A stretch of DNA of 59,893 nt from an uncultured archaeon (GTDB taxonomy: Archaea > Asgardarchaeota > Lokiarchaeia > Sigyniarchaeales > SOKP01): assembly GCA_964493715.1 (NCBI GenBank), contig CAZBPC010000013.1, positions 1 through 59,893 of the forward strand, in the 5' to 3' direction. Made by a program: the position numbers and the translations under genes. Shown piece after piece: positions 22,711-28,401 of this stretch. Position 1 is the stretch's first letter. Each line of letters opens with the position of its first letter. The notes beneath the pieces are model-generated. The model was not told where the DNA came from, made no database searches, and was given only the letters and a program-made list of their open reading frames with translations.

Positions 22711-22906
22711 TATATTCGGAAATGAAATTGAGAAATTATATTACTCTCTAAATTCAATATTAATTCAATTTAAAAAACAAAACTATTCTTCTTTTTCATA
22801 ATCAAACTGAAATTCTTTGAGATTAACTGAATATGTAAATAATTAAATAGAAATTTTGACACTAATAATTTAAAAATATCAATAAATAAATCTGCAAGTG
22901 AAGCAT

Positions 22907-24379
22907 ATGGAAGAAAATGAAAAACAATTAACACCAGAGGAAATTGAGAAGCAAAAAGAGATTGTAGATAAGTTATATAGTAAAGAGAAAGAAGAACGAG
23001 ATGAATACTTTAAAGAATTCGAAGAGGAACGTAAAAAGAATTTCAAAGAAAGCAAAGAATTAATCTCAGCTCTTATTTCAGAAAAAGCATTTCACCGTGA
23101 AAAACATCGTCAAGAAGATTTACAGAGAATGGAAATAAAACCAGATATAGAGATGAAAGGAGAAGCAATTGAAAAAGATATCGAACAAAAAGCATTTATA
23201 AGAGAAAAACAGAGAGAAGATGACTTAAAACGAATGGATCTTAAACCAGATATCAAGGGAGTTGGAGAAATTATTGCTAAATCCATGAATGAGAAAGCTT
23301 TTTTAATCGAAAAAAAAAGGGAATCTGATATGCAACGAATAAAGATAAAACCAGATTTAGAAAAATCAATGGATGCTATTAGTAAATCAGTAGATGAAAA
23401 AGCTTTTATGATTCAGCGAAAGAGAGAGGATGACGAAAAAAGACATAAAATTAAACCAGATATAGAGACAAGCGCTCAAGCAATCAGTAAAACAATTAAT
23501 GAAAAAGCCTACTTTCGAGATATACAACGAGAAGAGGATTCAAAAAGGATGGAAATTCATCCAGACTTTAGAACAACAGGGGAAGCTATTGATAAAACCA
23601 TCGCAGAAAAAGCATTCAGGATTGATAAACAAAGGGAAATTGATCAAAATAGATTCAAGATCAAGCCAAATATCGAGGAAGCAACTTTAGCGATTAAGGA
23701 ATCTATTGATGAAAAAGCATTCAGAATTGAAAAGCAAAGAGAATTGAATCAAAAGAGAATGGAGCTCACCCCCGATATTGAAAAATCTGCTCAAGCCATT
23801 AGCAAGACAATCGCAGAGAAATCTTTTTTAAGAGAAAAACAAAGAGAAGATGATTTAAAGCGCATGGAAATTCATCCTGAATTTAGAAAAACAGGAGAAG
23901 CAATTAATAAAACCATCGCAGAAAAAGCATTCAGGATTGATAAACAAAGAGAGGTAGATGAGAAGCGGTTAGCCATTAGACCGGATAAGGAAAAAATAAG
24001 TGGTGCCATAGGAAAAACCATTGAAGAGAAAGCATTCTTTAGAGAAAAACTAAGAGAAGATGATCAAAAAAGGGTTACTATCAAACCTGATTTAGTCTCT
24101 GCAAGCGAAGCTATAAAATCATCAATAGATCAGAAAGCTTTCAGGATTGAGAAGAAAAGAGAAATTGATCATGAACGAATGGAATTACGTCCTGAATTTG
24201 AAAAAACAAGTGAAATTATTGAAAAAGCATTTGAAGAAAAAACATTTTATAGAGAGAAACAAAGAGAAGAGGATCGTAAACGATTTGAAGTTAAACCTGA
24301 CATAAAGGGACTTGGAGAAAAACTGGAGAAAAAAATTGAAAAAATCGAAGAAAAGAAGCGAGATGAAAATCTAAATTAA
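22907..24379 (+). CDS. Highly charged 35-aa tandem-repeat protein (nebulin-like candidate)
   Basis: 12 contiguous 35-aa units; ATG at 22907 (ORF track uses GTG 22898); no TM segment or signal peptide. Confidence 0.85.
   Translation: MEENEKQLTPEEIEKQKEIVDKLYSKEKEERDEYFKEFEEERKKNFKESKELISALISEKAFHREKHRQEDLQRMEIKPDIEMKGEAIEKDIEQKAFIREKQREDDLKRMDLKPDIKGVGEIIAKSMNEKAFLIEKKRESDMQRIKIKPDLEKSMDAISKSVDEKAFMIQRKREDDEKRHKIKPDIETSAQAISKTINEKAYFRDIQREEDSKRMEIHPDFRTTGEAIDKTIAEKAFRIDKQREIDQNRFKIKPNIEEATLAIKESIDEKAFRIEKQRELNQKRMELTPDIEKSAQAISKTIAEKSFLREKQREDDLKRMEIHPEFRKTGEAINKTIAEKAFRIDKQREVDEKRLAIRPDKEKISGAIGKTIEEKAFFREKLREDDQKRVTIKPDLVSASEAIKSSIDQKAFRIEKKREIDHERMELRPEFEKTSEIIEKAFEEKTFYREKQREEDRKRFEVKPDIKGLGEKLEKKIEKIEEKKRDENLN
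23075..24334 (+). repeat. 12 x 105-bp coding tandem repeat with 315-bp higher-order similarity
   Basis: 1260 bp = 12 x 105 with no indels; near-identical segments begin at 23549 and 23864. Confidence 0.95.
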
Positions 24380-25640: not shown

Positions 25641-26033
25641 CTATAAATTGGTTTTTATAGAACTTAAAGTTCTCCAAGTTTTCCAAAAAATTAACAACAT
25701 GATTATGAAGATAAACAAAGCTGTAACGAAAGTATATCCTCCGATAAATGGATCCACTAATATCATAAATAATATACCTGCTATTGAAAAGCCTATCATG
25801 TATCCATACCCCCAATAACGATCTCTTAAAGAAATTATAATAGCAGGAATAAATGTGGTTAAAATTATTGATAAAAACGCAAGAACTTCAACACTTCGAG
25901 GAGAATTTTGAATTATAATCATGTTAAACCACGAAATTACAAAACCAACAATACAAAATAAAAAAGTTTTATAACTTACTTTAAAATCTGGTTCAGAGTT
26001 ACGAATACGTTGTATCTTATCAATATCGTTCAT
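25641..26033 (-). CDS. Small integral membrane protein (about 4 TM)
   Basis: Four hydrophobic segments in 130 aa. Confidence 0.75.
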   Translation of the reverse strand: MNDIDKIQRIRNSEPDFKVSYKTFLFCIVGFVISWFNMIIIQNSPRSVEVLAFLSIILTTFIPAIIISLRDRYWGYGYMIGFSIAGILFMILVDPFIGGYTFVTALFIFIIMLLIFWKTWRTLSSIKTNL

Positions 26034-26213
26034 TATAATTGATGTAATAGGTTATTTTTAATAGTTAAACCTTGTTCAAATGATGAATTATTTTAAATAG
26101 GTTGAAAGATATATAGTACATAAGATAAAAATTGAATTAAAATATTAGTAAATTTTTTAATTAAAATTGAACTATAAAAAAGAAAAAGAAAATAATACAA
26201 AACCATTAAACAT

Positions 26214-26359
26214 GACTCCTGCCTCACCCTGGATTTTTGTCTTTTGGTAGTGCATGTAATGCACTCTTATTTCGCCCTCCAAGAGCCGTGATATACACGG
26301 AACTGGGGAATCCCCCTATAATTTTTCTGACCTTATCATTAGGTCTCGGGGCAGGAGTC
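26214..26359 (+). ncRNA. Candidate structured non-coding RNA, family unknown
   Basis: 146 nt, 70 G+C (48%) in a very AT-rich spacer; 12-bp closing stem plus five internal stems; two U-G wobbles favour the + strand. Confidence 0.65.
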
Positions 26360-26700
26360 TCTCTTTTCTCCCCCATAACGTATTGGTTAATTAGCTTAAT
26401 CTTTAAATTAGAAAAGAACATTATTTTATTATAATACATTGAAGAAGAACCTCCTATTAAATATCTGTGACAATTTTAAAAGCATAAACATATAATTGAT
26501 AAAGAAAAGGTTTATTTTAAAACGTAGGATTTAACATTTCAATTATATCCTAAAAGAGAACAATTTAATTACTATTCAACTCTTCTTTAATAATACTATT
26601 ACAAATATGTATTACGCGATTAAATTTTTAAGCTAAAATGCGTTATTTGATTAATTAAATATTTGTTCAAATAGAAATAAAATTGAAAAAACTGATTCAT

Positions 26701-28401
26701 ATGACCGAAGAAATAATTAGACGTACCCGTAGCATTTGTCCAGAATGTATGAAAACCATTGACGCCGAAATCTATGTTGATCCAAAGACAGATTTCGTCA
26801 TGATGCGCAAAAATTGTGAAGAACACGGAGAATTCAAGGATAAACTTGCAAGCGCATCTGAGGAGTACAAGTGGGCACAAACTTTTACTGATGAGTTAGG
26901 ATCTACTATTGATAATTCCACAAAACCAGAATTCATAAGTTCTGGAATTAAAAAAACCGTTAATGGATGCCCAAATGATTGTGGTTTGTGTACGAATCAT
27001 AAATCCGCCCCAAATATAGCCCTAATTGATGTCACAAATCGATGTAATTTGACTTGCCCCATCTGTTTCGCGAATGCTAGCGCTAAGGGGTATGTGGTCG
27101 AGCCTACATTCGATCAACTTGTACAAATTATGGAACATTTTAGGTCAATGAAACCCGTTCCTCCTGTTTTGTTACAATTATCTGGAGGGGAACCTACTGT
27201 TAGAGATGATCTTCCAGATATCATTCGAAAAGGAGTAGAGTTAGGTTTTGTTGAGGTAATGGTCACTACTAATGGAGTAAGATTTGCAAAATCACCTGAA
27301 TTTATGAAGAAATGCATGGATGCGGGTATGAAAGCCATTTACCTGCAATTCGACGCTACTGATGATCCAGAAGTATGGAAAAAAGTGAGAGGTGTTAATT
27401 TGTGGCCTCTGAAGAAAAAAGTATTTGAAAATGCTCGAAAAATCGGATACTATGGAATTGTATTAGTACCTGTTATTGCTAAAGGAGTAAATGATCATCA
27501 AATCGCTCCGATAATGGAGTTTGCTAAGCAAAATACTGACTTAGTTACAGGCGTAGTATTTCAACCAGTATCACTATGTGGGCGCATAAGTTTCGAAGAG
27601 TTAATGGATTTACGATACACAACTTCTGATTTGAAAGTAGCTATCAATAAAGCTACAAATAATGCGGTTACAAGATTTTATCCTATAGCAACGACTGCCA
27701 AGATGACGAGATTATTAGCTTGGTTTGATGATGTTCCCGAATTTTCAATGACAAGTCATAAAGATTGTGGATTTGCCACCATCTGTATAGTTAATGACAA
27801 AGATGAGTGGGAACCTCTTGAAAAATATTTTGACGTGGAAGGGTTAGTTAGATGGTCAAATAAAACCTATGATATGGTTCAGAAACAAGAAATACCAAAA
27901 CCAACTGGTTTCTTAAAGAATGTAAATCTTGAAGACTTAGGAGCCGTTCCCAGTACTATTGGTAAATTTATCGATGATATGACAAACTTAGGATATCGCC
28001 AAATGATGAAAGCTTATTATCTAGCCGGTTCAATGCGTTATGTTAAGAATCCAGCAAAGGTACTGACAAGTAAAACATTCCAAGGATTTGCTCGATTAGT
28101 AATGGCTCCAAATCTATCCTCGGCAACGAACTTTTTACACACGCGAAATCTTTTAATAAGTGCTATGCACTTCCAGGATGCATATAATTTTGATCTGGAT
28201 AGAATATGTCAATGTTTAGTCCATTATGGTGTAATTGATCCGAATGACAATACTAAAGTATTAGAAGTACCTTTCTGTGCGATGAATACGATACATCGTG
28301 AGAGAATCGAGCTTGCTAACGCCATTCAAGGCGAAGAAGCTAAGAAAGCAGAAGTCATTCAAGCTGAAATTGAGAACCTTATAAAAACCGTTGAAAAATA
28401 A
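26701..28401 (+). CDS. tes: Tetraether lipid synthase (Tes / GDGT-MAS, MJ0619 family radical SAM)
   Basis: N-terminal SICPEC...CEEHG, CPNDCGLC.NH, DVTNRCNLTCPICFA, SGGEPT, C-terminal MHFQDAYNFD...C.VHY...PFC.MN. Confidence 0.88.
   Translation: MTEEIIRRTRSICPECMKTIDAEIYVDPKTDFVMMRKNCEEHGEFKDKLASASEEYKWAQTFTDELGSTIDNSTKPEFISSGIKKTVNGCPNDCGLCTNHKSAPNIALIDVTNRCNLTCPICFANASAKGYVVEPTFDQLVQIMEHFRSMKPVPPVLLQLSGGEPTVRDDLPDIIRKGVELGFVEVMVTTNGVRFAKSPEFMKKCMDAGMKAIYLQFDATDDPEVWKKVRGVNLWPLKKKVFENARKIGYYGIVLVPVIAKGVNDHQIAPIMEFAKQNTDLVTGVVFQPVSLCGRISFEELMDLRYTTSDLKVAINKATNNAVTRFYPIATTAKMTRLLAWFDDVPEFSMTSHKDCGFATICIVNDKDEWEPLEKYFDVEGLVRWSNKTYDMVQKQEIPKPTGFLKNVNLEDLGAVPSTIGKFIDDMTNLGYRQMMKAYYLAGSMRYVKNPAKVLTSKTFQGFARLVMAPNLSSATNFLHTRNLLISAMHFQDAYNFDLDRICQCLVHYGVIDPNDNTKVLEVPFCAMNTIHRERIELANAIQGEEAKKAEVIQAEIENLIKTVEK

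Follow-up and report, generated by a model that had tools for sequence, protein, structure and literature searches.

A candidate stand-alone RNA gene family with an invariant uridine-rich core in two Lokiarchaeia families

Overview of the RNA gene

Comparison of homologous copies makes it very probable that positions 26214-26359 of the window (the whole stretch of 59,893 nucleotides analysed here) belong to a real stand-alone RNA gene. The family it represents covaries strongly across two large families of the Lokiarchaeia, closed genomes included: that of the source genome (f1) and its sister family (f2). Its parts follow one another as P1, core, P3, a short GAUUU-type linker, an optional P3b, a pyrimidine linker, P4 and again P1. 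The core is the only long stretch conserved in sequence, with the stems varying freely around it; by comparison, P3, the optional P3b and P4 are conserved as shape rather than as sequence, and P1 brings both ends together, making a multi-branch loop. As to function, we tentatively propose a scaffold or decoy that would bind Sm-like archaeal proteins (SmAPs) and whose 5' end could mask its own core, a mechanism that, taken as a whole, we regard as possible rather than probable. The parts of the gene and its neighbours in the window are as follows.

25641..26033 (-): hydrophobic 130-aa ORF, divergent, without a Pfam match; it marks the syntenic locus and lies outside the RNA
26092..26099 (+): conserved TATA box at inferred -30 to -23, aligned in most of 18 loci from several lineages, with a 30-nt spacing peak
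26109..26114 (+): A/T element near -10 of the inferred start, seen as conserved AT columns in the upstream alignment; we take it to be an archaeal -10 element
26122..26132 (+): anti-core, the 11 nt with which the transcript is predicted to start; it can pair with core positions 26233-26243, one pair being U-G (duplex -9.6 kcal/mol)
26133..26213 (+): 5' leader rich in A and poor in G, its length variable (start to P1 69-154 nt in the 25 copies with a long leader)
26214..26225 (+): 5' strand of P1, the closing helix (probability 0.97-1.0; 10/10 pairs change on both sides)
26231..26248 (+): U-rich core, invariant, with one U-tract on each side of GUC, the first (G-A-U5-G) Sm-site-like; defined by conservation
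26249..26265 (+): P3 hairpin (pair probability and covariation)
26277..26310 (+): optional hairpin P3b, comprising the 30-nt insertion 26281-26310 with CCGUG/CACGG (6/167 f1 copies)
26311..26328 (+): pyrimidine-rich linker, its character but not its sequence kept in alignments
26329..26345 (+): P4 hairpin (5/5 pairs covary)
26348..26359 (+): 3' strand of P1 (pair probability and covariation)
26360..26375 (+): pyrimidine run after P1, a probable terminator (composition and end of homology)
26701..28401 (+): radical-SAM gene (PF04055 and PF23545), labelled tes in an earlier, sequence-only reading of the window and lying outside the RNA

Fold and covariation

The sequence-only reading had noted a G+C island with a stable fold in an AT-rich spacer, and this was borne out. 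The element has a G+C content of 47.9% against 19.4% in the remaining spacer, which is bounded by the divergent 130-aa ORF on one side and the radical-SAM gene on the other; its + strand folds at -56.7 kcal/mol (z -5.87, with none of 200 shuffles equally stable) and its - strand at z -4.75. Four of the six stems proposed in that reading stood, at pair probabilities between 0.75 and 1.0: the closing stem P1 (26214-25 with 26348-59; 12 bp, one U-G; 0.97-1.0), AGUGCAU/AUGCACU, which is P3 (0.75-1.0), CCGUG/CACGG (0.99-1.0) and GACCU/AGGUC, which is P4 (0.93-1.0). The remaining two fell to 0.02-0.05: CUUUUGG/CCAAGAG is complementary on paper but reaches just 0.02-0.03, its 3' arm ending within the 30-nt insertion 26281-26310, and GGGG/CCCC reaches 0.05 in the register given, the minimum-free-energy fold moving the pairing by one base. 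A near-isoenergetic alternative (-50.0 vs -51.8) pairs GGGG with an upstream CUCC, and this is the helix found at the corresponding place in f2. The positions that the reading gave for TATAAAAA (26173-80), GATTTTTG (26232-39) and AATTTTTCTG (26320-29) were correct.

P1, P3 and P4 covary. In an alignment of 37 copies, drawn from both families and a virus record and fitted to the covariance model, all 21 of 21 pairs show two-sided change and 95.1% of cells are paired, a figure that falls to 36-46% in a slide control, with the pairing partners displaced. Furthermore, an independent MAFFT alignment of 58 copies has 95.5% of cells paired, with 15 of 28 pairs changed on both sides. Our shuffle control for covariation disregards relatedness, and more weight is therefore given to the slide control and the counts. 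Where only one side of a pair has changed, the result is G-U on the + strand, for which reason the RNA is read from that strand.

Some parts come and go. P4 is lost in two f1 genera (g18 and g24 copies), and the 30-nt insertion 26281-26310 occurs in 6 of the 167 distinct f1 copies; since most f2 copies carry a hairpin at the P3b place, the long form seen in the window is probably the ancestral state. At the 3' side, the first 12 nt past P1 are 77% C/T and 2% G (126 copies), and homology among copies usually stops at this pyrimidine run.

Distribution and copy number

Conservation across the Lokiarchaeia and the copy number in the genome, both suggested as checks alongside the sequence-only reading, were examined in genome collections. 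Covariance-model matches occur in 117 of the 124 other f1 genomes, at 1-18 copies each, and a 17-mer is found in 124 of 132 f1 genomes. In f2, a broader model followed by a pattern search recovered well-folded intergenic copies in 11 of 14 genomes, including three single-contig genomes with 2-4 copies each. The 26-nt word occurs at no fewer than 114 places (at least 114) in a species-representative genome collection; among the 80 matches listed, the titles name Promethearchaeota/Promethearchaeia (60), other Asgard archaea (13) and an uncultured archaeon (7). A metagenome scan with the f2 word gave 35 matches, 18 of them above 28 bits with model R3.

Searches of other Lokiarchaeia families and other Asgard classes returned nothing credible. 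Outside f1, the 17-mer matched 18 of 265 genomes, all but one with mismatches and at about the level of the reversed control; the best E value of model R2 over 40 genomes of other classes was 0.002, and model R3, run over 40 genomes, gave significant matches in f2 only. Weak model matches outside the two families were set aside, as those inspected all lacked a long closing helix and mostly lay within ORFs or overlapped them; the g5 candidate (L184), for example, sits within a 393-aa ORF.

The source genome itself holds a second copy, on contig C1 at about 126060-126210 (L031). Its interior is 92% identical to that of the window copy over 103 nt, and the two have the rare 30-nt insertion in common, while the closing and last helices are wholly different yet paired. 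A shared insertion and interior between unrelated P1 and P4 helices suggests that old paralogues underwent gene conversion. A number of copies sit no more than about 150 nt from the end of a contig, which is where they should lie if assembly tends to break off at such repeats, and draft genomes probably hold more copies than were counted.

Genomic context

The gene does not follow any one neighbour. Copies are intergenic in 146 of 147 contexts and their neighbouring genes form 131 clusters; Pfam searches of 110 of these revealed no function shared among them, nor any transposase, integrase or reverse transcriptase. The divergent 130-aa ORF adjoins the RNA gene in 51 of 147 contexts. The sequence-only reading had offered, as one option, a regulatory RNA upstream of tes. 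Such an arrangement is poorly matched by the contexts: the radical-SAM gene lies downstream in just 40 of 147, 39 of 128 downstream genes are convergent, the gap has a median of about 375 nt, and the position upstream of functionally related genes that a riboswitch or 5' leader would have is inconsistent. Likewise, the core shows no conserved frame with synonymous variation of the kind expected of a leader peptide or small toxin. Intergenic copies with unrelated neighbours thus argue against a tes regulator, a peptide gene or a MITE.

Other observations concern particular loci. A second long-lived locus adjoins a gene for a helix-hairpin-helix protein (14 contexts; L051, L081, L100, L103, L107, L124), in six contexts upstream of a DEAD-type helicase gene. 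A syntenic f2 locus (L266, L275, L281) is flanked by what we take to be a phosphofructokinase-like gene and possibly a THUMP-domain gene. In the window, 22898-24379 (+) encodes a 493-aa highly charged protein with repeats of about 38 residues and no Pfam match.

The other option of that reading, a novel ncRNA, is strongly supported by the covariation, the wide conservation, the gene's own promoter and the pyrimidine-rich 3' flank. The Rfam covariance-model check that it had proposed was run: Rfam (15) gave no match over the element and no significant match over 14 homologous loci, and no tRNA was called at the element. A divergent 5S had been considered when the Rfam 5S cut-off was passed in only 2 of 59 family genomes, and was dropped on finding a 5S-like sequence elsewhere. 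This divergent 5S-like sequence of the source genome (contig C8:73114-73232, - strand; also L173) scores under the Rfam cut-off and is apparently followed by a second copy. With it, RNase P RNA and SRP RNA lie elsewhere in the source genome, so the element replaces none of them. In metatranscriptomes, 20 RNA runs contained 0.04-0.10 of the sampled words, and four were compared as assembled contigs only; among the pieces listed, only those of run X2 fall on the element (26251-26340 and 26311-26400), and this run has pieces on the spacer and both genes as well; those of the other three runs cover the downstream gene and the adjoining upstream spacer only. Such coverage fits the presence of a discrete transcript as well as its absence.

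Promoter and 5' leader

Archaeal promoters carry a TATA box at -30, and with this geometry the conserved box at 26092 makes the anti-core the first 11 nt of a predicted RNA of about 245 nt. We infer that the transcript begins at 26122, about 90 nt before P1. The sequence-only reading had misplaced both features: its TATA box at 26173-80 corresponds to TATAAAWA in only 8 of 202 copies, and its 5' boundary at 26214 cuts short what is apparently a larger gene.

The anti-core is the reverse complement of core positions 3-13. A degenerate anti-core motif occurs in 38 of 116 leaders, compared with 3 of 400 regions upstream of genes and 5 of 348 shuffled sequences, and the spacing from TATA to anti-core is exactly 30 nt at 25 of 217 TATA-like sites, every other distance accounting for 0-7. 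The 30-nt peak is absent genome-wide (18 of 6409 sites), and none of 27 regions upstream of tRNA genes reaches 10 of the 11 anti-core positions; these two controls rule out a generic BRE or initiator. The anti-core positions that vary face U and alternate between A and G; a C in the core is faced by a conserved G, and a G by U, a tally partly conditioned on the remaining positions. The margin of leaders scored against 60 shuffled cores is thin (20.5 vs a maximum of 20.3). Under nested folding, the mean probability of pairing between 5' end and core is 0.41 before P1 closure and 0.02 after it; for the window copy the values are 0.15 and 0.01, in a model of nested, pseudoknot-free folds.

The leader differs between lineages. 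The anti-core is clear in part of f1 only, and 11 f2 copies tested had no anti-core sites. In 8 of 23 f2 copies the TATA box lies 52 nt before the core, which places the start at P1 itself. One f2 genus thus apparently starts at P1, suggesting that function resides in the domain closed by P1 and that the leader adds a control specific to certain lineages. Two further leader features were seen. In four loci (L092, L100, L107, L124), a core-like copy lies directly 3' of the anti-core and can fold back as a hairpin. Many short-form leaders contain an AAUAGG(G)-type segment that is complementary to the C-rich linker and co-varies with it (L005-L021, L042, L043), and the duplex of leader segment and linker is more than 3 kcal/mol better than shuffles in 35 of 119 copies.

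The uridine-rich core and its candidate partner

The core reads G-G-A-U5-G-U-C-U4-G-G-U in f1 and U-A-U4-G-U-C-U5-G-G-A-U in f2. Its f1 positions are 98-100% identical among 116 dereplicated copies, selected at no more than two mismatches, and RAU4-6G is present in the core of 166 of 167 copies. A word of this type is expected by chance 0.13 times per 146 nt in the source genome, so that the invariance of the tract counts, not its presence. Four U of the first tract are predicted to be unpaired at about 0.95, the tract's flanks lying in a predicted weak 4-bp hairpin (-3.2 kcal/mol). Variable stems around a fixed, largely unpaired U-rich word suggest a frame that presents a recognition site; moreover, a protein partner is indicated by the fact that no conserved RNA complement was found except the 5' end of the gene itself.

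Which protein this might be is suggested by the first tract, located between P1 and P3. Single-stranded RNA rich in U is a ligand of SmAPs, and the Sm site has the consensus PuAU4-6GPu, flanked by stem-loops (PMC3710371). In f1, the final purine is present in just 5 of 167 copies, and in f2 the A is preceded by U. The sequence-only reading had seen Sm-site-like U-tracts and a possibly Sm-bound RNA. Its first tract proved invariant, whereas the second does not fit AU4-6G, and 12 of 167 copies have a counterpart of it; Sm binding, with an invariant AU4-5G tract and three SmAPs on one side and a rarely complete consensus and an unconserved second site on the other, is a plausible inference. The source genome has three SmAP genes with intact-looking Sm1/Sm2-type motifs and a longer, 137-aa Sm-like paralogue (L165-L168); one SmAP gene adjoins a small basic ORF that we take to resemble L37e. 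Three to four SmAP matches per genome are typical of f1. SmAP genes occur in 69 of 69 genomes of the class, families without the RNA included, and the virus record that carries a copy of the RNA has no SmAP gene, so that there is no co-distribution signal.

On the mechanism that we favour, a stand-alone small RNA would act in trans. A folded frame with freely changing stems would present two U-tracts to a conserved protein partner, most likely host SmAP rings, and the RNA would either scaffold an RNP or titrate the partner as a decoy, at a dose that would be higher the more copies a genome has. In f1, the 11-nt 5' end of the nascent RNA could mask its own core, which would be exposed by removal of the leader or by displacement through the partner. 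Against SmAP binding counts the position of the tract within a closed loop, since a ring already formed could not be threaded onto it. A more specific version, which we consider quite unlikely, would have an Sm-like ring, possibly a heteromer of three SmAP paralogues, assembled on the internal U-tract as on eukaryotic snRNAs, with the 5' end gating loading and the copy in a jumbo virus exploiting or titrating the host complex. If true, it would mean a prokaryotic snRNP-like particle in close relatives of eukaryotes. The short invariant word can be synthesized and tested at once. If SmAPs do load on the RNA, it would give direct experimental access to the question of which RNA the Sm rings of archaea carried before there was a spliceosome.

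A copy in a virus record

One copy lies between co-oriented ORFs in a complete 225-kb virus record with terminal repeats (G398; G+C 41%), suggesting a role of the RNA during infection. The RadA of this record is 67-68% identical to that of f1, compared with 50-57% for the other Asgard genomes tried. Besides RadA, it encodes MCM, three RNA ligases, Thg1, a nucleotidyltransferase and 8 tRNA genes, together with an AAA_33 gene, presumably polynucleotide-kinase-like. Among its proteins, 129 searched in Pfam and 27 in PHROGs gave no capsid or terminase match, so the record may belong either to a novel virus or to a jumbo extrachromosomal element of f1. Scans of viral sequences gave no matches to the 26-mer or to the f2 word, and 8 to the 18-mer, of which 7 lie inside ORFs and 1 is the true copy.

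Alternative explanations

A 5' end complementary to the core would also suit a base-pairing sRNA, whose core or C-rich, anti-Shine-Dalgarno-like linker pairs with conserved targets, the anti-core being a self-made copy of the target. The core is able to pair with purine-rich RNA, as its own leader shows, and the f1 linker contains CCUCC, like the 3' end of the source genome's 16S rRNA. We nevertheless hold this to be unlikely: the genome has no extended complement of the core, a search at six or fewer mismatches in 26 nt finding only the two copies of the RNA gene, the best G-U-tolerant sites are scattered and mostly coding, shuffled sequences form duplexes just as good with the 3' part of 16S rRNA and with 5S, SRP and RNase P RNAs, and the linker sequence differs among genera and families. 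The same complementarity could instead reflect a 6S-like decoy of RNA polymerase, in which P1 would close, the core would serve as the template in the bubble and product RNAs equal to the gene's first nucleotides would release the enzyme. The copied core would indeed equal the gene's own +1 to +11, and the topology (closing stem, 5' bulge strand and a hairpin on the opposite strand) fits that given in PMC8414754. Such a decoy is rather improbable, however, given that no Rfam 6S match was obtained, that the apical stem is a short hairpin of about 5-11 bp in most copies and not a long rod, and that f2 lacks the match to the start of the gene, which is no general promoter feature either. To our knowledge, no archaeal 6S RNA has been described.

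The repair genes of the virus record raise the prospect of a stable RNA, similar to Y RNAs or tRNAs, that would serve RNA repair or quality control and travel with the tRNA-repair kit of a virus. Y RNAs have paired ends, a pyrimidine-rich internal loop and a U-rich tail, all of which have counterparts here, and the record has its 8 tRNA genes, three RNA ligases, Thg1, nucleotidyltransferase and AAA_33 gene. Yet TROVE/Ro60 was found neither in the source genome (100% complete by markers) nor among the 129 viral proteins, the element has neither a tRNA call nor an Rfam match, and the viral copy lies away from the ligases and tRNA genes, which leaves this explanation very unlikely. Equally improbable is the selfish spread of a non-autonomous mobile element (MITE-, REP- or SINE-like). 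In its favour, a genome may hold as many as 18 dispersed copies, larger genomes tend to hold more of them (rho 0.59 over 85 genomes at least 90% complete, kin not being independent), and some copies lie among defence-like genes; but the ends change compensatorily (10/10 pairs) around an invariant interior, the opposite of terminal inverted repeats, some loci are syntenic and long-lived, the 110 of 131 neighbour clusters lack transposase, integrase and reverse transcriptase as the source genome lacks RVT_1, shared blocks take in the promoter and stop at the terminator, and target-site duplications were not seen in the junctions inspected. Finally, a cis-regulator of tes, or a leader-peptide gene with AUG at the start of P1 and a 12-codon frame holding two Trp codons, seems highly improbable. 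It could draw on the radical-SAM synteny in 40 contexts and on an ATG 30-14 nt before the core in 81 of 119 copies vs 80 of 357 control windows, an excess inflated by shared ancestry. However, neighbours and orientations vary, a terminator-like run lies 3' of P1, frames are open across the core in all three frames (41, 49 and 28 of 119) and the core letters are invariant at every codon position.

Comparison with known RNAs

In the literature searched, from which supplementary tables and subscription journals were outside the scope, the RNA family is not described and the core words have no match; a term search of 10.64898/2026.02.13.705702 likewise gave no match, and the structured RNAs described for Asgard archaea are the universal ones and SECIS. 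The family thus appears, with strong comparative support, to be an RNA gene family undescribed in that literature, its partner being putative.

Like 5S rRNA, SRP RNA and RNase P RNA, the element is a G+C island typical of stable RNA and has paired ends, but those RNAs lie elsewhere in the source genome (5S as the divergent 5S-like sequence). With Y RNAs it shares paired ends, a pyrimidine-rich loop, a length of about 110 nt, a U-rich 3' flank and occurrence in a virus; it differs in that no Ro60/TROVE gene was found in the source genome and that there is no conserved Ro-binding helix, the sequence of P1 being free to change. Bacterial 6S RNA has a similar closing stem formed from both ends, a conserved 5' bulge strand and a hairpin opposite, whereas here the apical stem is short, the branching is four-way, the host is an archaeon without sigma factors and no model match was obtained.

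Closer to the proposed mechanism are the Sm-class snRNAs (U1, U2, U4, U5), which also have an internal A-U4-5-G between helices in a multi-hairpin RNA of 110-150 nt with its own promoter. In contrast to these, the full PuAU4-6GPu is reached in just 5 of 167 copies, the tract lies in a loop closed by the 5' and 3' ends and is followed by a second U-tract, and there is no Rfam similarity; we know of no spliceosome in the host. Hfq- or SmAP-associated sRNAs and protein-sponge RNAs of the CsrB/RsmZ type are likewise stand-alone, often multi-copy, and show a fixed protein-binding word on variable stems. In the Lokiarchaeia RNA, the word is an 18-nt internal U-rich core in place of a 3' U-tail or repeated GGA loops, and the predicted 5' end complements that core; a 5' end that complements the RNA's own active word would be an unusual design whichever partner it serves.
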